Below, piece by piece: positions 1 to 12,483 of a DNA stretch of 13,805 nt. The position numbers and the translations under genes were made by a program. Positions within the stretch are counted from its first letter, which is position 1, and each line of letters opens with the position of its first letter. Origin of the DNA: a virus (Duplodnaviria > Heunggongvirae > Uroviricota > Caudoviricetes); the IMG/VR virus record IMGVR_UViG_2703718840_000009, positions 1 through 13,805 of that record; one strand, given 5' to 3'. The notes under the pieces are model-generated. The model was not told the DNA's origin. It did not search any database and was given only the letters and a program-made list of their open reading frames with translations.

Positions 1-585
1 CTATTCGATAATGGGTCCTGTTGGCCATTCAATATCCGGTGCAGTTGATGTATCAACACGGTTCAGCAACACCCGATACTTCTTCCAGGCTTCCAGCAAC
101 GAGTTTTCTTCCTCCGTTGCGATCTCCAGATCCACAGCATCCTGAAGCGGCGCTATATGCTCACTGGCTACCTGCATCAGGCTGTTTTTTGTTTCTTCCG
201 CCTCCCGGATCCGGAACAGTTTTTCTGCTTCCGTATCCTTCACCCAGGCTGTGCCGTTCCACTTCTGATATTCCCCTCCCGGCGACAACCAGGTAACATT
301 TTCCGGTAACGGACCGAGTTCAGAAATAAATAACGCGTCGCCGGAAGCCACGTCATAAACCGTTTTACCCCGATGGTCTTCAACGAGATGCCACGATGCC
401 TCATCACTGTTGAAAACGGCCACAAAGCCAGCAGGAATATCTGGCGGTGCAATATAGGTACTGTTTGCTGGCAGACCTGTATGAGGCGGAATATATGCAT
501 CACCTTCACCAATAAATTCATTAGTTCCGGCCAGCAGATTATAAATTTTTATGGTCCGTGGTTGTTCACTCATTCTGAATGCCAT
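1..585 (-). CDS. tfa: Tail fibre assembly protein Tfa
   Basis: 194-aa ORF ([24 protein letters not shown]...) matches lambda Tfa from memory. Stop codon is at 1-3; start overlaps the stf stop (ATGA). Confidence 0.9.
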
Positions 586-2189: not shown

Positions 2190-2400
2190 GGACAAAAACA
2201 GAGAAAGGAAACGACAGAGGCCAAAAAGCTCGCTTTCAGCACCTGTCGTTTCCTTTCTTTTCAGAGGGTATTTTAAATAAAAACATTAAGTTATGACGAA
2301 GAAGAACGGAAACGCCTTAAACCGGAAATTTTTCATAAATAGCGAAAACCCGCGAGGTCGCCGCCCCGTAACCTGTCGGATCACCGGAAAGGACCCGTAA
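2190..2400 (-). other. cos: Annealed cos site (cosB-cosN-cosQ); 12-nt cohesive-end sequence at about 2355-2366
   Basis: Plus strand 2341-2366 (agcgaaaacccgcgaggtcgccgccc) is the reverse complement of the lambda left end GGGCGGCGACCTCGCGGGTTTTCGCT. It is followed directly by cgtaacctgtcgg, the reverse complement of the lambda right end. Confidence 0.85.
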
Positions 2401-2565
2401 AGTGATAATGATTATCATCTACATATCACAACGTGCGTGGAGGCCATCAAACCACGTCAAATAATCAATTATGACGCAGGTATCGTATTAATTGATCTGC
2501 ATCAACTTAACGTAAAAACAACTTCAGACAATACAAATCAGCGACACTGAATACGGGGCAACCTC

Positions 2566-2760
2566 ATGTCAACGAAGAACAGAACCCGCAGAACAACAAC
2601 CCGCAACATCCGCTTTCCTAACCAAATGATTGAACAAATTAACATCGCTCTTGAGCAAAAAGGGTCCGGGAATTTCTCAGCCTGGGTCATTGAAGCCTGC
2701 CGTCGGAGACTAACGTCAGAAAAGAGAGCATATACATCAATTAAAAGTGATGAAGAATGA
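2566..2760 (+). CDS. Hypothetical small protein with a possible ribbon-helix-helix (Arc/CopG-like) fold
   Basis: 64-aa ORF starting in right-end lambda sequence (catgaggttgccccg). Basic N-terminus then a strand-helix-helix pattern (RNIRFPNQMIEQINIALEQKGSGNFSAWVIEACRRRL). No convincing RBS seen. Confidence 0.35.
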   Translation: MSTKNRTRRTTTRNIRFPNQMIEQINIALEQKGSGNFSAWVIEACRRRLTSEKRAYTSIKSDEE

Positions 2761-2924
2761 ACATCCCGCGTTCTTCCCTCCGAACAGGACGATATTGTAA
2801 ATTCACTTAATTACGAGGGCATTGCAGTAATTGAGTTGCAGTTTTACCACTTTCCTGACAGTGACAGACTGCGTGTTGGCTCTGTCACAGACTAAATAGT
2901 TTGAATGATTAGCAGTTATGGTGA

Positions 2925-3131
2925 TCAGTCAACCACCAGGGAATAATCCTTCATATTATTATCGTGCTTCACCAACGCTGCCTCAATTGCTCTGAATGCT
3001 TCCAGAGACACCTTATGTTCTATACATGCAATTACAACATCAGGGTAACTCATAGAAATGGTGCTATTAAGCATATTTTTTACACGAATCAGATCCACGG
3101 AGGGATCATCAGCAGATTGTTCTTTATTCAT
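2925..3131 (-). CDS. Hypothetical 68-aa protein of the lambda right arm
   Basis: ORF in a visibly AT-rich block at the position of a small ORF I recall near the lambda right end. Confidence 0.5.
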
Positions 3132-3293
3132 TTTGTCGCTCCATGCGCTTGCTCTTCATCTAGCGGTTAAAATATTACTTCAAATCTTTCTGTATGAAGA
3201 TTTGAGCACGTTGGCCTTACATACATCTGTCGGTTGTATTTCCCTCCAGAATGCCAGCAGGACCGCACTTTGTTAAGCAACCAATACTATTAA

Positions 3294-3827
3294 GTGAAAA
3301 CATTCCTAATATTTGACATAAATCATCAACAAAACACAAGGAGGTCAGACCAGATTGAAACGATAAAAACGATAATGCAAACTACGCGCCCTCGTATCAC
3401 ATGGAAGGTTTTACCAATGGCTCAGGTTGCCATTTTTAAAGAAATATTCGATCAAGTGCGAAAAGATTTAGACTGTGAATTGTTTTATTCTGAACTAAAA
3501 CGTCACAACGTCTCACATTATATTTACTATCTAGCCACAGATAATATTCACATCGTGTTAGAAAACGATAACACCGTGTTAATAAAAGGACTTAAAAAGG
3601 TTGTAAATGTTAAATTCTCAAGAAACACGCATCTTATAGAAACGTCCTATGATAGGTTGAAATCAAGAGAAATCACATTTCAGCAATACAGGGAAAATCT
3701 TGCTAAAGCAGGAGTTTTCCGATGGGTTACAAATATCCATGAACATAAAAGATATTACTATACCTTTGATAATTCATTACTATTTACTGAGAGCATTCAG
3801 AACACTACACAAATCTTTCCACGCTAA
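3294..3827 (+). CDS. Hypothetical 177-aa protein of the lambda right arm (true start may be an internal Met)
   Basis: Long ORF in the AT-rich block between cos and bor; an aggaggt RBS-like motif lies inside the 5' end, suggesting a later start. Confidence 0.5.
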
Positions 3828-4116
3828 ATCATAACGTCCGGTTTCTTCCGTGTCAGCACCGGGGCGTTGGCATAATGCAATACGTGTACGCGCTAAACCC
3901 TGTGTGCATCGTTTTAATTATTCCCGGACACTCCCGCAGAGAAGTTCCCCGTCAGGGCTGTGGACATAGTTAATCCGGGAATACAATGACGATTCATCGC
4001 ACCTGACATACATTAATAAATATTAACAATATGAAATTTCAACTCATTGTTTAGGGTTTGTTTAATTTTCTACACATACGATTCTGCGAACTTCAAAAAG
4101 CATCGGGAATAACACC

Positions 4117-4410
4117 ATGAAAAAAATGCTACTCGCTACTGCGCTGGCCCTGCTTATTACAGGATGTGCTCAACAGACGTTTACTGTTCAAAACAAACCG
4201 GCAGCAGTAGCACCAAAGGAAACCATCACCCATCATTTCTTCGTTTCTGGAATTGGGCAGAAGAAAACTGTCGATGCAGCCAAAATTTGTGGCGGCGCAG
4301 AAAATGTTGTTAAAACAGAAACCCAGCAAACATTCGTAAATGGATTGCTCGGTTTTATTACTTTAGGCATTTATACTCCGCTGGAAGCGCGTGTGTATTG
4401 CTCACAATAA
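4117..4410 (+). CDS. bor: Bor lipoprotein (serum-resistance, Iss-like)
   Basis: 97-aa ORF with signal peptide and lipobox (MKKMLLATALALLITGCAQQ), matching lambda Bor from memory. Opposite orientation to the lysis genes, as in lambda. Confidence 0.9.
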   Translation: MKKMLLATALALLITGCAQQTFTVQNKPAAVAPKETITHHFFVSGIGQKKTVDAAKICGGAENVVKTETQQTFVNGLLGFITLGIYTPLEARVYCSQ

Positions 4411-4441
4411 TTGCATGAGTTGCCCATCGATATGGGCAACT

Positions 4442-4903
4442 CTATCTGCACTGCTCATTAATATACTTCTGGGTTCCTTCCAGTTGTTTTTGCATAGTGA
4501 TCAGCCTCTCTCTGAGGGTGAAATAATCCCGTTCAGCGGTGTCTGCCAGTCGGGGGGAGGCTGCATTATCCACGCCGGAGGCGGTGGTGGCTTCACGCAC
4601 TGACTGACAGACTGCTTTGATGTGCAACCGACGACGACCAGCGGCAACATCATCACGCAGAGCATCATTTTCAGCTTTAGCATCAGCTAACTCCTTCGTG
4701 TATTTTGCATCGAGCGCAGCAACATCACGCTGACGCATCTGCATGTCAGTAATTGCCGCGTTCGCCAGCTTCAGTTCTCTGGCATTTTTGTCGCGCTGGG
4801 CTTTGTAGGTAATGGCGTTATCACGGTAATGATTAACAGCCCATGACAGGCAGACGATGATGCAGATAACCAGAGCGGAGATAATCGCGGTGACTCTGCT
4901 CAT
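4442..4903 (-). CDS. Rz: Spanin inner-membrane subunit Rz
   Basis: 153-aa ORF with N-terminal TM segment and coiled-coil body; matches lambda Rz from memory. Confidence 0.9.
4501..4683 (-). CDS. Rz1: Spanin outer-membrane lipoprotein Rz1, nested in the +1 frame of Rz
   Basis: 60-aa ORF inside Rz with lipobox (VVVGCTS) and a proline-rich stretch ([15 protein letters not shown]). Confidence 0.85.
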
Positions 4904-5376
4904 ACATCAATCTCTCTGACCGTTCCGCCCGCTTCTTTGAATTTTGCAATCAGGCTGTCAGCCTTATGCTCGAACTGACCATAACCAGCGCCCGGCAGTG
5001 AAGCCCAGATATTGCTGCAACGGTCGATTGCCTGACGGATATCACCACGATCAATCATAGGTAAAGCGCCACGCTCCTTAATCTGCTGCAATGCCACAGC
5101 GTCCTGACTTTTCGGAGAGAAGTCTTTCAGGCCAAGCTGCTTGCGGTAGGCATCCCACCAACGGGAAAGAAGCTGGTAGCGTCCGGCGCCTGTTGATTTG
5201 AGTTTTGGGTTTAGCGTGACAAGTTTGCGAGGGTGATCGGAGTAATCAGTGAATAGCTCTCCGCCTACAATGACGTCATAACCATGATTTCTGGTTTTCT
5301 GACGTCCGTTATCAGTTCCCTCCGACCACGCCAGCATATCGAGGAACGCCTTACGTTGATTATTGATTTCTACCAT
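4900..5376 (-). CDS. R: Endolysin R (lytic transglycosylase)
   Basis: 158-aa ORF ([35 protein letters not shown]...) matches lambda R from memory; overlaps the Rz start. Confidence 0.95.
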
Positions 5377-5683
5377 CTTCTACTCCGGCTTTTTTAGCAG
5401 CGAAGCGTTTGATAAGCGAACCAATCGAGTCAGTACCGATGTAGCCGATAAACACGCTCGTTATATAAGCGAGATTGCTACTTAGTCCGGCGAAGTCGAG
5501 AAGGTCACGAATGAACCAGGCGATAATGGCGCACATCGTTGCGTCGATTACTGTTTTTGTAAACGCACCGCCATTATATCTGCCGCGAAGGTACGCCATT
5601 GCAAACGCAAGGATTGCCCCGATGCCTTGTTCCTTTGCCGCGAGAATGGCGGCCAACAGGTCATGTTTTTCTGGCATCTTCAT
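5360..5683 (-). CDS. S: Holin/antiholin S (S107/S105 dual start)
   Basis: 107-aa ORF beginning [32 protein letters not shown] with the Met1-Lys2-Met3 dual-start motif and three TM segments. Confidence 0.95.
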
Positions 5684-6088
5684 GTCTTACCCCCAATAAG
5701 GGGATTTGCTCTATTTAATTAGGAATAAGGTCGATTACTGATAGAACAAATCCAGGCTACTGTGTTTAGTAATCAGATTTGTTCGTGACCGATATGCACG
5801 GGCAAAACGGCAGGAGGTTGTTAGCGCGACCTCCTGCCACCCGCTTTCACGAAGGTCATGTGTAAAAGGCCGCAGCGTAACTATTACTAATGAATTCAGG
5901 ACAGACAGTGGCTACGGCTCAGTTTGGGTTGTGCTGTTGCTGGGCGGCGATGACGCCTGTACGCATTTGGTGATCCGGTTCTGCTTCCGGTATTCGCTTA
6001 ATTCAGCACAACGGAAAGAGCACTGGCTAACCAGGCTCGCCGACTCTTCACGATTATCGACTCAATGCTCTTACCTGTTGTGCAGATA

Positions 6089-6145
6089 TAAAAAATCCCG
6101 AAACCGTTATGCAGGCTCTAACTATTACCTGCGAACTGTTTCGGG
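6089..6145 (-). terminator. tR' intrinsic terminator of the 6S transcript
   Basis: On the minus strand, cccgaaac ... gtttcggg stem followed by a U-run (reverse complement of plus-strand 6089-6145). Confidence 0.7.
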
Positions 6146-6282
6146 ATTGCATTTTGCAGACCTCTCTGCCTGCGATGGTTGGAGTTCCAGACGATACGTC
6201 GAAGTGACCAACTAGGCGGAATCGGTAGTAAGCGCCGCCTCTTTTCATCTCACTACCACAACGAGCGAATTAACCCATCGTT
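6089..6282 (-). ncRNA. Lambda 6S RNA (short pR' transcript terminated at tR')
   Basis: Interval between the inferred pR' start and tR'; the sequence matches the lambda pR'-tR' region from memory. The TSS position is approximate. Confidence 0.55.
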
Positions 6283-6320
6283 GAGTCAAATTTACCCAAT
6301 TTTATTCAATAAGTCAATAT
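6283..6320 (-). promoter_or_regulatory. Late promoter pR' with overlapping qut site
   Basis: Minus strand reads TTGACT (-35), 17-nt spacer, TAAATT (-10), as in lambda (ttgacttattgaataaaattgggtaaatttgactcaacgatgg). Confidence 0.65.
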
Positions 6321-6359
6321 CATGCCGTTAATATGTTACCATCCGTGGCAATCATGCTG

Positions 6360-6752
6360 CTAACGTGTGACCGCATTCAAAATGTTGTCTGCGATTGACT
6401 CTTCTTTGTGGCATTGCACCACCAGAGCGTCATACAGCGGCTTAACAGTGCGTGACCAGGTGGGTTGGGTAAGGTTTGGGATTAGCATCGTCACAGCGCG
6501 ATATGCTGCGCTTGCTGGCATCCTTGAATAGCCGACGCCTTTGCATCTTCCGCACTCTTTCTCGACAACTCTCCCCCACAGCTCTGTTTTGGCAATATCA
6601 ACCGCACGGCCTGTACCATGGCAATCTCTGCATCTTGCCCCCGGCGTCGCGGCACTACGGCAATAATCCGCATAAGCGAATGTTGCGAGCACTTGCAGTA
6701 CCTTTGCCTTAGTATTTCCTTCAAGCTTTGCCACACCACGGTATTTCCCCGA
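6360..6752 (-). pseudogene. Q: Antiterminator Q, C-terminal fragment only (~130 codons)
   Basis: C-terminus (SGKYRGVAKLEGNTKAKVLQ ... HKEESIADNILNAVTR) matches lambda Q. The ORF-track extension to 7019 is antisense to bet/exo, so the Q N-terminus is absent. Confidence 0.8.
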
Positions 6753-6948
6753 TAACGATGAAACCATGCAGGAGATTAACACTCTGCTGATCGCCCTGGA
6801 TAAAACATGGGATGACGACTTATTGCCGCTCTGTTCCCAGATATTTCGCCGCGACATTCGTGCATCGTCAGAACTGACACAGGCCGAAGCAGTGAAAGCT
6901 CTTGGATTCCTGAAACAAAAAGCCACTGAGCAGAAGGTGGCAGCATGA
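6748..6948 (+). pseudogene. bet: Bet single-strand annealing protein, C-terminal ~66-codon remnant
   Basis: Reads (PD)[64 protein letters not shown], the lambda Bet C-terminus; stop overlaps the exo start (ATGA). Confidence 0.8.
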
Positions 6949-7625
6949 CACCGGACATTATCCTGCAGCGTACCGGGATCGACGTGAGAGCTGTCGAACA
7001 GGGGGATGATGCATGGCACAAATTACGGCTCGGCGTCATCACCGCTTCAGAAGTTCACAACGTGATAGCAAAGCCCCGCTCAGGAAAGAAGTGGCCTGAC
7101 ATGAAAATGTCCTACTTCCACACCCTGCTTGCCGAGGTTTGCACCGGTGTGGCTCCGGAAGTTAACGCTAAAGCACTGGCCTGGGGAAAACAGTACGAGA
7201 ACGACGCCAGAACCCTGTTTGAGTTCACTTCCGGCGTGAATGTTATTGAATCCCCGATCATCTATCGCGACGAAAGTATGCGTACCGCCTGCTCTCCCGA
7301 TGGTTTATGCAGTGACGGCAATGGCCTTGAGCTGAAATGCCCGTTTACCTCCCGGGATTTCATGAAGTTCCGGCTCGGTGGTTTCGAGGCCATAAAATCG
7401 GCTTACATGGCCCAGGTGCAGTACAGCATGTGGGTGACACGAAAAGATGCCTGGTACTTTGCCAACTATGACCCACGTATGAAGCGTGAAGGACTGCATT
7501 ATGTCGTGGTTGAGCGGGATGAAAAGTACATGGCGAGTTTTGACGAGATGGTGCCGGAGTTCATCGAAAAAATGGACGAGGCACTGGCTGAAATTGGTTT
7601 TGTATTTGGGGAGCAATGGCGATGA
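6945..7625 (+). CDS. exo: Lambda exonuclease (Red alpha)
   Basis: 226-aa ORF ([40 protein letters not shown]...) matches lambda Exo from memory. Confidence 0.95.
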
Positions 7626-7804
7626 AGCATCCTCACGATAATATCCGGGTAGGTGCGATCACTTTCGTCTACTCCGTTACAAAGCGAGGCTGGGTATTTC
7701 CCGGCCTTTCTGTTATCAGAAATCCCCTGAAAGCACAGCGGCTGGCTGAGGAGATAAATAATAAACGGGGAGCTGTATGCACAAAGCATCTCCCGTTGAG
7801 TTAA
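7616..7804 (+). CDS. Small hypothetical protein (lambda orf60a-like); start may be the ATG at 7622
   Basis: Small ORF immediately after exo, overlapping its stop, as in the lambda pL operon. Confidence 0.6.
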
Positions 7805-7968
7805 GAACGAGTATCGAGATGGCACATAGCCTCGCTCAAATTGGAGTCAGGTTTGTGCCAATACCAGTAGAAACAGACGAAGAATTTCATACGTTAGCCG
7901 CATCCCTTTCACAAAAGCTGGAAATGATGGTGGCGAAAGCAGAAGCAGATGAGAGAGACCAGGTATGA
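7777..7968 (+). CDS. Small hypothetical protein (lambda orf63-like)
   Basis: 63-aa ORF overlapping the neighbouring ORFs, in the same order as lambda. Confidence 0.6.
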   Translation: MHKASPVELRTSIEMAHSLAQIGVRFVPIPVETDEEFHTLAASLSQKLEMMVAKAEADERDQV

Positions 7969-8044
7969 CAACCACTGAATGTATTTTTCTGGCAGCGGGC
8001 TTCATATTCTGTGTGCTTATGCTTGCCGACATGGGGCTTGTTCA

Positions 8045-8260
8045 ATGACACCTCAGCAAGAAAACGCCCTTCGCAGCATTGCCCGTCAGGCTAATTCTGA
8101 AATCAAAAAAGCCAGACAGCAGTTTCCGGATAAAAACGTCGATGACATTTGCCGTAGCGTACTGAAGAAGCACCGCGAAACGGTAACGCTGATGGGATTC
8201 ACACCGACTCATTTAAGCCTGGCAATCGGCATGTTAAACGGCGTCTTTAAGGAACGATGA
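8045..8260 (+). CDS. Small hypothetical protein (lambda orf61-region); ORF track extends it upstream to 7979
   Basis: Internal ATG at 8045 gives MTPQQENALRSIARQANSEIKKARQQFPDKNVDD...; no recognisable domain. Confidence 0.45.
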   Translation: MTPQQENALRSIARQANSEIKKARQQFPDKNVDDICRSVLKKHRETVTLMGFTPTHLSLAIGMLNGVFKER

Positions 8261-8358
8261 ACATGAAAAGCAAAATTATCAGGGAGCTACAGGCTCCTTT
8301 TTTATTGCTCGCATTTACCCCCAAGCGTATTAACCAACAATTCAGGGATTAATGGAAG

Positions 8359-8580
8359 ATGGCAGACATCATTGATTCAGCATCAGAAATTGAAGAATTA
8401 CAGCGCAACACAGCAATAAAAATGCGCCGCCTGAACCACCAGGCTGTATCTGCCACTCATTGTTGTGAGTGTGGCGATCCCATAGATGAGCTAAGACGCC
8501 TGGCCGTTCAGGGTTGTCGGACTTGTGCAAGTTGCCAGGAAGATCTGGAGCTTATCAGTAAACAGAGAGGTTCGAAGTGA
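8359..8580 (+). CDS. TraR/DksA-family C4 zinc-finger protein (lambda Orf73-like)
   Basis: 73-aa ORF with CxxC-(17)-CxxC (HCCECGDPIDELRRLAVQGCRTCASC), resembling F-plasmid TraR. Stop overlaps the next ORF start (GTGA). Confidence 0.8.
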   Translation: MADIIDSASEIEELQRNTAIKMRRLNHQAVSATHCCECGDPIDELRRLAVQGCRTCASCQEDLELISKQRGSK

Positions 8581-8990
8581 GCGTAATTCACTCTCAGGCA
8601 CTGCGTGAAGCGGCAGAGCAGGCAATGCCTGACAACTGGGGATTTGACGCGGACCTTTTCCATGAGCTGGTAACACCATCGATTGTGCTGACACTGCTGG
8701 ATGAACGGGAAAGAAACCAGCAATACATCAAACGCCGCGACCAGGAGAACGAGGATATTGCGCTAACGGTGGGGAAACTGCGTGTTGAGCTGGAGACAGC
8801 AAAAATCAAAACTCAACGAGCAGCGTGAGTAGAAGGTGTTATCTCGGATGGAAGTAAGCGTATTGCTGAACTGGAGGCCTGGGTTGAATACACAAGAGCT
8901 GCATACGTAAGAGCAAAAGACAAGGGAGATTTGATCAGAGTTATTACCCGCCAACCAACGGGATTTTACGCTTACGTACCATGTAATTAG
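8577..8990 (+). pseudogene. ea22: ea22-like ORF interrupted by an in-frame TGA at 8826-8828 (83 codons, stop, then 53 open codons)
   Basis: N-terminus MSVIHSQALREAAEQAMPDNWGFDADLFHELVTPSIVL resembles lambda Ea22 (from memory, uncertain). After the TGA the same frame reads VEGVISDGSKRIAELEAWVEYTRAAYVRAKDKGDLIRVITRQPTGFYAYVPCN to TAG at 8988-8990. Confidence 0.5.
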
Positions 8991-9126
8991 GAATCCTTGA
9001 AGTGGCAGCCTAACTGCGGATACACTGAAATGGCGATTTGGTAACATGTTTCGCACAAGGCTGTTACTACACTTAGAGATAATCAGCCATGATTAAACGC
9101 TTTGTAAAAAGTAAAAGGAAATTACA

Positions 9127-9741
9127 ATGAAAAAATCAATACTAATTTTAGGGCTTACGTTAATTGTCTCATCTCAAATACCATCGGCAATGGCAAAAAA
9201 TGAATCAAAACTATGGGTTGTTGTTGATCGAACGGAAAGACATACCTGCCCTTCAAGTAAATGTGGAGTGGCTGGGAAACTATTTTTCAGGGAAGGCGTA
9301 GATTTTCTAGAAAAAAAAGGTGAATGGGTTCGTATAACTGAGCCATATTCAGCCTCATGTGTTGGAGGGGAAAGCGAATATATTAAAGAAGGTAATAAAT
9401 CCTGCACAAGAAAAAATGGAATCGTTAATGGCAAGTTTTCAGAATGGGTTAAACTTAGTGATCTTAGCAGTGAAAGGCCATCAGATCCTGCTGAAAATGC
9501 GAGCGGAGATGATACTTTAATCAAAGGATCTGATGACTACCGTATATACAAAAAAGAGTTTTCTTCGGCAGCTAGGAAGTTAATAAATGAAGGGGTCTGC
9601 ACGGAAAGCGATTTTAAGGAAATCGGAGGGTGGATGGCATCAAGCAATAAGGGTGAAAACATCTATTTCACATATTGCGGAGGAATGACGTTGTCGAACA
9701 GAATATATCTAGACGTTAAAAGTGGAAAGACTTTTAGATAA
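9127..9741 (+). CDS. Hypothetical secreted protein with a possible bacterial SH3-like N-terminal domain (non-lambda)
   Basis: 204-aa ORF with RBS aagga ~8 nt upstream and a signal peptide (MKKSILILGLTLIVSSQIPSAMA). Visibly AT-rich, several Cys, followed by a terminator hairpin. Confidence 0.8.
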   Translation: MKKSILILGLTLIVSSQIPSAMAKNESKLWVVVDRTERHTCPSSKCGVAGKLFFREGVDFLEKKGEWVRITEPYSASCVGGESEYIKEGNKSCTRKNGIVNGKFSEWVKLSDLSSERPSDPAENASGDDTLIKGSDDYRIYKKEFSSAARKLINEGVCTESDFKEIGGWMASSNKGENIYFTYCGGMTLSNRIYLDVKSGKTFR

Positions 9742-9812
9742 TATGATATTACCAATGACAGCATTAATTTAATGCCTCCATAGAATTATCTCCAGGAAGT
9801 AAGTATAAGAAA

Positions 9813-9850
9813 AGCCCGCACAATGAGCTGCTGCGGGCTTTGTGTTATTC
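9813..9850 (+). terminator. Putative intrinsic terminator after the secreted-protein gene
   Basis: Stem agcccgca / tgcgggct with ~11-nt loop, followed by a T-rich tract (ttgtgttatt). Confidence 0.55.
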
Positions 9851-10034
9851 GCCATATTTTATGAAGCAAATACGACACTATAGATAATTAAGCGTTACTG
9901 GTTGTCGATTCCTCACTCATTCCTGCTGATGGCTGTCTTCTTGTATGTGCCATTGAAGGGTAATATCGCGTAAAAAGATACCGGAAGTATCCGCGCCGCC
10001 ATGATTGTCTTTCTCCTGATGCAGGAAAAGCAGA

Positions 10035-10373
10035 ATGACTAGATCAGCAGCAGAGCGCAAAGCCGATCAGAGAGCCAAGCAAGCATCATCCGGTATGCGT
10101 AAGCTGGAGCTTGTACTTGATGCTCAGGAAATTGAAATGCTGGAGCGTAACTGAGCCACGCGCCGCTTCAGGCGTGCGCCTTACGAGTTTGGTGAGTACA
10201 TAGCATTACTGAGCCGCCAGGATGATGCACGTGTGCGCTGGCGTATAAAATCGATTAGCAGAAAACGTTGCCGTAAGTGCGGCGAGAGAGTTCCTGTTAA
10301 TTCATGCCCGTGTAATGGTGACTCACAATACTGGGTGACCAAAGGCTGGCACGAAACAAAATTAATGATATAA
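10035..10373 (+). pseudogene. Zinc-ribbon small ORF (possible Ea8.5 counterpart) split by an in-frame TGA at 10152-10154
   Basis: ATG at 10035 with RBS aggaaaag gives 39 aa (MTRSAAERKADQRAKQASSGMRKLELVLDAQEIEMLERN). After the TGA the same frame stays open to TAA at 10371-10373 and contains CRKCGERVPVNSCPC; a GTG at 10233 could restart it. Confidence 0.4.
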
Positions 10374-10401
10374 ATCTCTGTGACATGTCACGGAGGCGGC
10401 A

Positions 10402-10830
10402 ATGAAATTAGACCAGCAATATCTAAAAGATCTACTTATCGCATTCGAAAAAACTTATGGCCCTGACACGATGCTTAGTGAACTAGAGGATAATGGCTTT
10501 AATAGATATGACCAAAATTTTATTTTCCATATGCGATTATTATGTGACTACGAATTAATAGTTAGGGTTGATGGAAAACCAGGGTTCGGTCATATAATGT
10601 CCAACGAGTTAGGGGAAGGTGTTGAATATAGTTGGATCGAAGTACCACTGAGGTTGACAGCAAGAGGGCATGATTTTATTGCTGACTTACGTCAAAAGGA
10701 GGTCTGGCAAGCTATAAAAACAAACTTTAAGGATGAGGGAATTAGTACTCTTATGAGTGTTTCAAAATCACTAGCAAAAGTCTTTGCAAGGAAAAAAATA
10801 AAAGATATTACAGGAATAGATATTGAATAA
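10402..10830 (+). CDS. Hypothetical 142-aa protein, no signal peptide (non-lambda)
   Basis: Strong RBS ggagg 5 nt upstream; visibly AT-rich; preceded by a 12-bp palindrome and followed by a terminator hairpin at about 10877-10900. Confidence 0.75.
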   Translation: MKLDQQYLKDLLIAFEKTYGPDTMLSELEDNGFNRYDQNFIFHMRLLCDYELIVRVDGKPGFGHIMSNELGEGVEYSWIEVPLRLTARGHDFIADLRQKEVWQAIKTNFKDEGISTLMSVSKSLAKVFARKKIKDITGIDIE

Positions 10831-10876
10831 TTCTTAGCATCAAGCAACTACTGCCTTTGGTGAAAATTATATCTGA

Positions 10877-10900
10877 ACTCGCTACGGCGAGTTTTGTTTT
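10877..10900 (+). terminator. Putative intrinsic terminator after the 142-aa gene
   Basis: 6-bp stem actcgc / gcgagt with loop tacg, followed by tttgtttt. Confidence 0.55.
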
Positions 10901-10913
10901 ACGGAGATGATAA

Positions 10914-11081
10914 ATGCACTTCAGAGTCACTGGTGAATGGAATGGAGAACCATTCAACAGAGTTATCTAAGCAGAGAACATCAATGACTGCTATGACAAC
11001 TGGATGATATGGGCGCAGATAGCACATGCAGACATAACCAATATTCGAATTGAAGAACTGAAAGAACACCAAGCCGCCTGA
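10914..11081 (+). pseudogene. Small ORF upstream of xis (lambda orf55-position) interrupted by an in-frame TAA at 10968-10970
   Basis: Reads MHFRVTGEWNGEPFNRVI, TAA, then AENINDCYDNWMIWAQIAHADITNIRIEELKEHQAA to TGA at 11079-11081. The 168-nt span fits the 55-codon lambda ORF I recall at this position. Confidence 0.4.
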
Positions 11082-11120
11082 TGGCGGTTTTTTCTTGCGT
11101 GTAATTGCGGAGACTTTGCG

Positions 11121-11339
11121 ATGTACTTGACACTTCAGGAGTGGAACGCTCGCCAGCGACGCCCAAGAAGCCTTGAAACAGTTCGTCGATGGGTGCGCGA
11201 ATGCAGGATATTCCCTCCTCCGGTTAAGGATGGAAGAGAGTATCTGTTCCACGAATCAGCGGTAAAGGTTGACTTAAATCGACCAGTAACAGGTAGCCTT
11301 TTGAAGAGGATCAGAAATGGGAAGAAGGCGAAGTCATGA
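11121..11339 (+). CDS. xis: Excisionase Xis
   Basis: 72-aa ORF (MYLTLQEWNARQRRPRSLETVRRWVRECRIFPPPVKDGREYLFHESAVKVDLN...) matches lambda Xis; 3' end overlaps int. Confidence 0.95.
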   Translation: MYLTLQEWNARQRRPRSLETVRRWVRECRIFPPPVKDGREYLFHESAVKVDLNRPVTGSLLKRIRNGKKAKS

Positions 11340-12387
11340 GCGCCGGGATTTACCCCCTAACCTTTATATAAGAAACAATGGATATTACTGCTACAGGGAC
11401 CCAAGGACGGGTAAAGAGTTTGGATTAGGCAGAGACAGGCGAATCGCAATCACTGAAGCTATACAGGCCAACATTGAGTTATTTTCAGGACACAAACACA
11501 AGCCTCTGACAGCGAGAATCAACAGTGATAATTCCGTTACGTTACATTCATGGCTTGATCGCTACGAAAAAATCCTGGCCAGCAGAGGAATCAAGCAGAA
11601 GACACTCATAAATTACATGAGCAAAATTAAAGCAATAAGGAGGGGTCTGCCTGATGCTCCACTTGAAGACATCACCACAAAAGAAATTGCGGCAATGCTC
11701 AATGGATACATAGACGAGGGCAAGGCGGCGTCAGCCAAGTTAATCAGATCAACACTGAGCGATGCATTCCGAGAGGCAATAGCTGAAGGCCATATAACAA
11801 CAAACCCTGTCGCTGCCACTCGCGCAGCAAAATCAGAGGTAAGGAGATCAAGACTTACGGCTGACGAATACCTGAAAATTTATCAAGCAGCAGAATCATC
11901 ACCATGTTGGCTCAGACTTGCAATGGAACTGGCTGTTGTTACCGGGCAACGAGTTGGTGATTTATGCGAAATGAAGTGGTCTGATATCGTAGATGGATAT
12001 CTTTATGTCGAGCAAAGCAAAACAGGCGTAAAAATTGCCATCCCAACAGCATTGCATGTTGATGCTCTCGGAATATCAATGAAGGAAACACTTGATAAAT
12101 GCAAAGAGATTCTTGGCGGAGAAACCATAATTGCATCTACTCGTCGCGAACCGCTTTCATCCGGCACAGTATCAAGGTATTTTATGCGCGCACGAAAAGC
12201 ATCAGGTCTTTCCTTCGAAGGGGATCCGCCTACCTTTCACGAGTTGCGCAGTTTGTCTGCAAGACTCTATGAGAAGCAGATAAGCGATAAGTTTGCTCAA
12301 CATCTTCTCGGGCATAAGTCGGACACCATGGCATCACAGTATCGTGATGACAGAGGCAGGGAGTGGGACAAAATTGAAATCAAATAA
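11317..12387 (+). CDS. int: Integrase Int (tyrosine recombinase)
   Basis: 356-aa ORF (MGRRRSHERRDLPPNLYIRNNGYYCYRDPRTGKEFGLGRDRRIAITEAIQ...) matches lambda Int over its full length. Confidence 0.97.
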   Translation: MGRRRSHERRDLPPNLYIRNNGYYCYRDPRTGKEFGLGRDRRIAITEAIQANIELFSGHKHKPLTARINSDNSVTLHSWLDRYEKILASRGIKQKTLINYMSKIKAIRRGLPDAPLEDITTKEIAAMLNGYIDEGKAASAKLIRSTLSDAFREAIAEGHITTNPVAATRAAKSEVRRSRLTADEYLKIYQAAESSPCWLRLAMELAVVTGQRVGDLCEMKWSDIVDGYLYVEQSKTGVKIAIPTALHVDALGISMKETLDKCKEILGGETIIASTRREPLSSGTVSRYFMRARKASGLSFEGDPPTFHELRSLSARLYEKQISDKFAQHLLGHKSDTMASQYRDDRGREWDKIEIK

Positions 12388-12483
12388 TGATTTTATTTTG
12401 ACTGATAGTGACCTGTTCGTTGCAACAAATTGATAAGCAATGCTTTTTTATAATGCCAACTTAGTATAAAAAAGCAGGCTTCA
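12388..12483. other. attL: attL junction: phage P' arm with Int arm-type sites, 15-bp core (about 12461-12475), then bacterial arm
   Basis: Reverse complement reads tgaagcct-GCTTTTTTATACTAA-gttggcattataaaaaagcattgcttatcaatttgttgcaacgaacaggtcactatcagtcaaaataaaatca: bacterial-side sequence, lambda core, then lambda P' arm. Confidence 0.88.

Follow-up and report, generated by a model that had tools for sequence, protein, structure and literature searches.

Sequence analysis of an intact lambda orf73 allele, most likely silent, in a doubly deleted prophage remnant

Introduction

The TraR protein of the F plasmid (PDB 5W1S, 6N57 and 6PSQ-6PSV) works without ppGpp through the secondary channel of RNA polymerase (RNAP). 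The helix tip that bears its DxxDxA motif touches RNAP in its active-site region, and residues R48 and R49 make contacts with the rim helices and β'Si3 (PMC9239242). DksA (PDB 1TJL) also uses this site on RNAP; however, it is a protein of 151 aa that displays its DxxDxA motif on the tip of a coiled coil and needs ppGpp.

A close and well-studied relative of the protein considered here is Orf73 of bacteriophage lambda, encoded in the exo-xis region (Gopalkrishnan et al., 2022, mBio, PMC9239242). Purified Orf73 binds the DksA site and competes with DksA for RNAP. As with TraR, no ppGpp is needed for it to inhibit rrnB P1 (IC50 about 50 nM), and rpsT P2 is inhibited as well (PMC9239242). Activity in vitro is lost in the D3N or D6N variants, and the D3A+D6A double substitution lowers phage yield (PMC9239242). 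In vivo, Orf73 induced from pL left pre-rRNA at about 29% and the rpsT mRNA at about 45%; host cells grow more slowly in its presence and the burst size is 3-4 fold higher, while phage yield falls 3-4 fold without it (PMC9239242). TraR comes from a conjugative tra operon and is a strong activator of F tra promoters, whereas Orf73 does not strongly activate lambda promoters (PMC9239242). In lambda, orf73 is an early lytic gene, transcribed only from pL by N-modified polymerase and repressed in the lysogen (PMC9239242, PMC8614690), and it therefore acts in phage growth and not in lysogen physiology. A published AlphaFold model of lambda Orf73 (pLDDT 93) resembles TraR (PMC8614690).

The hallmarks of these proteins have been set out as the DxxDxA motif, the C4 zinc site, an ExxRK/L motif with an arginine pair of the TraR R48/R49 type, and an acidic residue towards the C-terminus (PMC9239242, PMC8614690). 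Here these features were examined in a 13,805-nucleotide stretch of a Caudoviricetes record (IMGVR_UViG_2703718840_000009), referred to below as the window.

Results

An allele of lambda orf73 encodes a TraR-family protein

The features of the gene, all on the plus strand, are as follows.

8359..8580 (stop codon included), plus strand: orf73 allele encoding a TraR-family C4 zinc-finger protein, from the ORF listing, translation and homology
8365..8382, plus strand: D3-I-I-D6-S-A8, the DxxDxA motif predicted at the tip of the N-terminal helix, beginning at residue 3
8461..8535, plus strand: putative C4 zinc-binding module, C35xxC38-(17)-C56xxC59, from the motif and its invariant cysteines
8488..8502, plus strand: E44-L45-R46-R47-L48, the ExxRK/L motif, from the motif and alignment
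8548..8550, plus strand: E64, acidic residue of the C-terminal helix, invariant in the homologue alignments

The ORF listing and translation gave a reading frame of 73 codons with an ATG at 8359 and a TGA ending at 8580, and its product is MADIIDSASEIEELQRNTAIKMRRLNHQAVSATHCCECGDPIDELRRLAVQGCRTCASCQEDLELISKQRGSK (73 aa). The earlier note on this DNA had pointed to a CxxC-(17)-CxxC arrangement and a TraR-like size, and exactly this was found: C35-x2-C38 is followed by 17 residues (39-55) and C56-x2-C59 in a 73-aa product. The protein has cysteines at positions 35, 36, 38, 53, 56 and 59, of which 36 and 53 are extras outside the C4 site. The four zinc cysteines align with TraR C37, C40, C58 and C61 and are invariant across 11 homologues, F TraR among them.

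The protein matched Pfam PF01258 (zf-dskA_traR) over residues 34-64 (E=1.5e-8) at 35 bits, above the gathering score of 24.9, and PHROG 54 ('DksA-like zinc-finger protein') with E=6e-26. These matches, together with the 96% identity to lambda Orf73, exclude a chance ORF, and on homology the reading frame with its zinc motif is far beyond a chance feature. The NCBIfam model TIGR02419 (C4_traR_proteo) aligned over its full length (1-64/64) with 54.3 bits (E=1.5e-14), a near miss under the curated cut-off of 59.7. In Escherichia coli PSJ-12 (NZ_AP027622) the identical gene carries the PGAP label 'TraR/DksA family transcriptional regulator' (WP_000763369.1).

The relationship to TraR extends along the whole protein. 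A search of the PDB with the single sequence recovered F TraR (5W1S/6N57) over residues 1-64 with E of about 1e-4. A profile was also built from ten phage homologues, ranging from 96% down to 42% identity and drawn from Stx phages, SfI, 75/02 Stx, a Klebsiella phage and a P2-like Yersinia phage; in a profile search of the PDB this TraR-free alignment matched F TraR end to end with E=9.2e-13. It replaced a profile with TraR inside the alignment, which was circular for the TraR match. Direct alignment, as proposed in the earlier note, gave 34% identity to F TraR (TraR residues 1-66) and 96% to lambda Orf73 (70/73), and the small size typical of the family (about 70-80 aa) is seen in the end-to-end alignment of the 73-aa product with the 73-aa TraR. 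A single-sequence AF2 model of low confidence (pLDDT 62) placed a long helix at residues 7-30 and another at 56-70; Foldseek against the PDB with this low-confidence model returned no fold match, the only hit being meaningless (E=8).

The gene occupies the same slot as in lambda, between orf61 and ea22. The lambda match falls in a gap between these two genes that RefSeq leaves unannotated, and the ORF there encodes the 73-aa Orf73. The DxxDxA motif, C4 site, ExxRL motif, R46/R47, E64, the upstream hairpin and the GTGA overlap with ea22 are all identical. Across 531 bases around orf73 identity is 94.7% to lambda and 100% to Escherichia phage Chlobot, whose DksA-like protein (PP925838.1, XNS39573.1) is encoded by a gene that is 100% identical along with its flanks. 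Together, these comparisons indicate that the window protein is, on homology, an intact allele of bacteriophage lambda Orf73 and a member of the TraR family, which bears out the TraR/DksA-like identity first proposed for it.

An Rfam scan of the whole window found no match at or near orf73, the sole match being IS009 elsewhere. The minus-strand ORFs antisense to the gene (8369-8530, 8491-8694 and 8508-8723) are mechanical ORFs, and no genes are annotated at these positions by PGAP or in the Chlobot record.

Hallmark residues are retained and the three substitutions look benign

All published TraR/Orf73 hallmarks are present in the window protein: D3/D6/A8, C35/C38/C56/C59, E44xxR47L (the ExxRK/ExxRL motif defined in PMC8614690), R46/R47 and E64, the acidic residue of the C-terminal helix that PMC8614690 counts among the hallmarks. 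Little or no variation is seen at these positions in the homologue alignments. Whether or not TraR is included, D6 and A8 do not vary and D3 hardly does, and R46/R47 correspond to TraR R48/R49. A lack of the acidic N-terminal residues had been named beforehand as a finding that would speak against secondary-channel activity; on inspection, D3 and D6 are present, as is A8.

The ORF differs from that of lambda by eight nucleotides, five of them synonymous, and the three non-synonymous changes give I30V, R45L and V49A. V30 and A49 are the usual states in other phages, and at position 49 it is lambda that is the exception. L45 is rare: among the 11 aligned sequences it occurs in the window and Chlobot only, most of the others having arginine. 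It also adjoins the contact residues R46/R47, and R45L might lower or change RNAP binding, leaving an allele that is not equivalent to lambda Orf73. The viability of Chlobot does not prove its allele active, since orf73 is non-essential. However, position 45 is one of the 'x' residues in the ExxRK/L motif (PMC8614690), alanine occupies the equivalent position in F TraR, the most active member of the family, and in the P2-like homologue, and every residue found important by mutagenesis is unchanged. A weakened or altered allele is thus unlikely, and I30V, R45L and V49A, all at variable positions, look benign.

The gene lies in a doubly deleted prophage remnant

The window was mapped by BLAST on the whole lambda genome, and every segment was accounted for.

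23-1217 (lambda 22535-21245): stf/tfa, in two separate matches of 94% and 86% identity
1488-2366 (lambda 880-1): A', Nu1 and cos
2367-6754 (lambda 48502-44115): bor, Rz, R, S, pR' and the 3' part of Q, all on the minus strand except bor
6753..6754: deletion junction joining lambda 44115 (in Q, minus) to lambda 32220 (3' part of bet, plus) with a 2-bp overlap
6753-8875 (lambda 32220-30094): 3' end of bet, exo, orf60a, orf63, orf61, orf73 and the 5' part of ea22
8876-10865: non-lambda DNA common to Chlobot, with no lambda counterpart
10866-12475 (lambda 29333-27724): orf55, xis, int and the att core
12476 onward: host ybhC, with no lambda counterpart

The deletion at 6753/6754 corresponds to lambda 32221-44114 and has removed gam, kil, cIII, N, nutL, pL, rex, cI, cro, cII, O, P, nin and the 5' part of Q. 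The exact Q/bet junction was found in none of 5426 complete E. coli genomes. It yields a chimeric minus-strand ORF of 219 aa (6360-7019). Lambda about 881-21244 is also absent from the window. At this second large deletion (about 1218-1488) the first ~57 codons or so of terminase A, up to lambda 880, are joined to an stf-like gene, and the head and tail genes are gone. The immunity region, pL/pR, N, replication genes and structural genes that would make up an intact, inducible lambdoid prophage were not found. Judged from this map, the element is a doubly deleted lambda-like prophage remnant at attB, on the ybhC side. In the related strain PSJ-12 the same prophage carries an ISKpn26 insertion and has undergone other deletions, independent of these.

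From exo to int (window 6753-12475) the arm is collinear with Chlobot, gapless and 98.5% identical. Chlobot, however, is a complete phage: its annotated region includes a repressor, an N-like gene and the remaining leftward early genes, all of which are lost in the window element. The perfect identity of orf73 to its Chlobot counterpart was considered as a sign of gene-specific purifying selection, but this was rejected: identity is complete across the 1.25-kb block 7983-9229 and mismatches cluster elsewhere, a mosaic pattern.

Elsewhere in the remnant, S, R and Rz are intact ORFs (4442-5683); as Q is truncated, these late lysis genes would stay terminated. A promoter-like site (TTGACT-17-TAAATT) at 6289-6317 on the minus strand lies between Q and S, the expected place of the lambda late promoter pR', and points away from orf73; its hexamers are probably those of pR'. 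The IS009 match (RF02111; 44-242, minus strand, 219.5 bits) lies within the gene for tail-fibre assembly (1-585, minus strand) and is probably conserved prophage sequence that has been catalogued as a candidate sRNA.

Surroundings of orf73 in the former pL operon

The genes and reading frames around orf73 are as follows.

6945-7625, plus strand: exo, former pL operon
7622-7804, plus strand: orf60a, former pL operon
7777-7968, plus strand: orf63, former pL operon
7979-8260, plus strand: orf61, former pL operon, full-length at 93 aa (PHROG 303)
8263-8352, plus strand: 29-codon ORF between orf61 and orf73, across the terminator-like hairpin; recorded in Chlobot as a hypothetical protein
8577..8828, plus strand: truncated ea22 of 83 aa with a GTG start, flagged as frameshifted by PGAP
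8763-9056, minus strand: convergent ORF of 97 aa with promoter-like sites at 9172-9079
9127-9741: ORF of 204 aa in the non-lambda module (PHROG 8310, unknown function)
10402-10830: DUF2513 protein in the non-lambda module

The 93-aa orf61 product is the form seen in Stx phages, and the 61-aa Orf61 of lambda itself has been called a truncated version (PMC8614690). PHROG searches gave no match for the 29-codon ORF or for the 97-aa ORF. If transcribed, the 97-aa unit would pass through orf73 in the antisense direction, on the way to a terminator-like site of the minus strand at 8129-8112. As in lambda, the orf73 TGA and the GTG with which ea22 begins overlap (GTGA), which implies translational coupling. 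A frameshift in an A-run cuts ea22 to 83 aa; the truncated form is also found in the viable phage Chlobot, and the truncation is therefore older than the remnant. The non-lambda module shared with Chlobot (8876-10865) replaces the 3' end of ea22 and ea8.5. Its 204-aa ORF had no Pfam match and no PADLOC match, and PADLOC found no defence system among the neighbouring non-lambda ORFs. A UmuD-like ORF, so annotated in Chlobot, lies at 9895-10212 on the plus strand and has three premature stops in the window relative to Chlobot, which indicates that the remnant is decaying.

Expression of orf73 in the remnant

Two terminator-like hairpins lie upstream of orf73.

7686..7718, plus strand: terminator-like hairpin of 9 pairs inside orf60a, between the junction and orf73, at about lambda 31.27 kb
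8281..8307, plus strand: terminator-like hairpin with an 8-bp stem, a 3-nt loop and a T-run behind it, 52 nt 5' of the orf73 ATG and identical in lambda

The consensus scan gave their positions as 7686-7708 and 8281-8299. The first may be lambda tL3; the number of terminator-like sites in the region is no higher than the shuffled expectation. A consensus scan of 5600-9200 found no plus-strand sigma-70-like sites, a kind of scan that weak promoters, non-sigma-70 promoters and read-through escape. The nearest plus-strand gene upstream is bor, which has its own terminator-like site at 4469-4483. Since pL, nutL and N are lost, no promoter-like site is seen and two terminator-like hairpins lie upstream, the copy would be silent or nearly so, and orf73 in the window is most likely transcriptionally silent cargo. 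Lambda, by comparison, expresses the gene from pL on induction, whereas the remnant is without pL, N and cI.

It could be supposed instead that read-through or a cryptic promoter gives a low, constitutive level of Orf73 in the remnant, tuning rRNA and amino-acid promoters independently of ppGpp, so that the gene has become a domesticated host regulator. The ORF is intact and equal to the allele of a viable phage, while the neighbouring UmuD-like ORF has gained three stops; the remnant has no repressor gene, so that cI repression is gone; and orf73-like genes are very common across E. coli, where they carry TraR/DksA-family annotation and are present in 3316 of 5426 complete genomes (61%), or in 3308 at a coverage of at least 80%, with up to 6 copies per genome. 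But pL and nutL/N are deleted, and the path from the junction to orf73 has no plus-strand promoter-like site and is crossed by the two hairpins. An intact ORF of 222 bp is expected by chance, moreover, and the block identical to Chlobot is a mosaic with no sign of gene-specific selection. Constitutive Orf73 would also be costly, as its expression slows growth (PMC9239242), and the deletion is probably recent, as the exact junction occurs in no other complete genome. Expression of this kind is accordingly most doubtful. That the remnant leaks enough Orf73 for it to regulate ribosome synthesis in this E. coli lineage, as a domesticated factor independent of ppGpp, is very improbable indeed.

Relationship to DksA and YbiI

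The PF01258 zinc finger and C-terminal helix are shared with DksA and YbiI. In the single-sequence PDB search YbiI (2KGO) ranked slightly above TraR, with a match covering the zinc finger only (residues 28-65), and in the profile search with TraR in the alignment the DksA match was weak (protein residues 31-71 against DksA 110-150, E=0.004), spanning the zinc finger and C-terminal helix. A length of about 150 aa, a coiled coil and full-length homology, which mark DksA proper, were not found; the window protein would have a single N-terminal helix instead. A chromosomal host paralogue of DksA/YbiI type that needs ppGpp, as opposed to a phage TraR-type factor, can therefore be dismissed as having next to no probability: despite the common zinc finger and the high rank of YbiI, the homology to both proteins is confined to the zinc-finger part whereas TraR matches end to end, including the DxxDxA helix, 73 aa is too short for the DksA coiled coil, and the gene lies in the lambda exo-xis block.

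Discussion

Taken as a whole, the locus is very probably best explained as an intact lambda Orf73 allele in a deleted prophage, most likely carried as silent cargo. From the 96% identity and the intact hallmarks we infer that the allele would, by analogy, be active like lambda Orf73. The secondary-channel mode of action suggested in the earlier note is thus supported at one remove, through the experiments on lambda Orf73 (PMC9239242) and the hallmarks retained here. In the proposed mechanism, the N-terminal helix of the window protein would enter the RNAP secondary channel and bring the D3xxD6xA8 tip close to the active site, the globular zinc-ribbon domain would touch the rim helices and β'Si3 via R46/R47, and the C-terminal helix would contact βSi1. 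Open-complex kinetics would then be altered without ppGpp and without DNA contact, so that rRNA and ribosomal-protein promoters would be inhibited, while some promoters for amino-acid biosynthesis would be activated. An intact phage expresses orf73 from pL, with N antitermination, early in the lytic cycle, and the gene slows host growth and raises phage yield.

The earlier note had added that a prophage-encoded copy could rewire host transcription if expressed. The TraR-type protein that this presupposes is indeed encoded, but its expression is probably lacking in a remnant devoid of pL, nutL, N and cI. A silent copy may still be a reservoir allele, which could enter incoming lambdoid phages by recombination; about 124 phage records encode proteins at least 95% identical to it.

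The gene family, its mechanism and its role in the phage are already published, and annotation pipelines already label the exact protein as TraR/DksA family; the genomic context, a doubly deleted remnant, is new. The finding has little significance beyond correct annotation, apart from one warning. A TraR-type gene that is intact and lies in a prophage-like region need not affect the host, and claims that such a gene rewires host transcription need expression data, because the promoter that drives it and the antitermination system have been deleted here.
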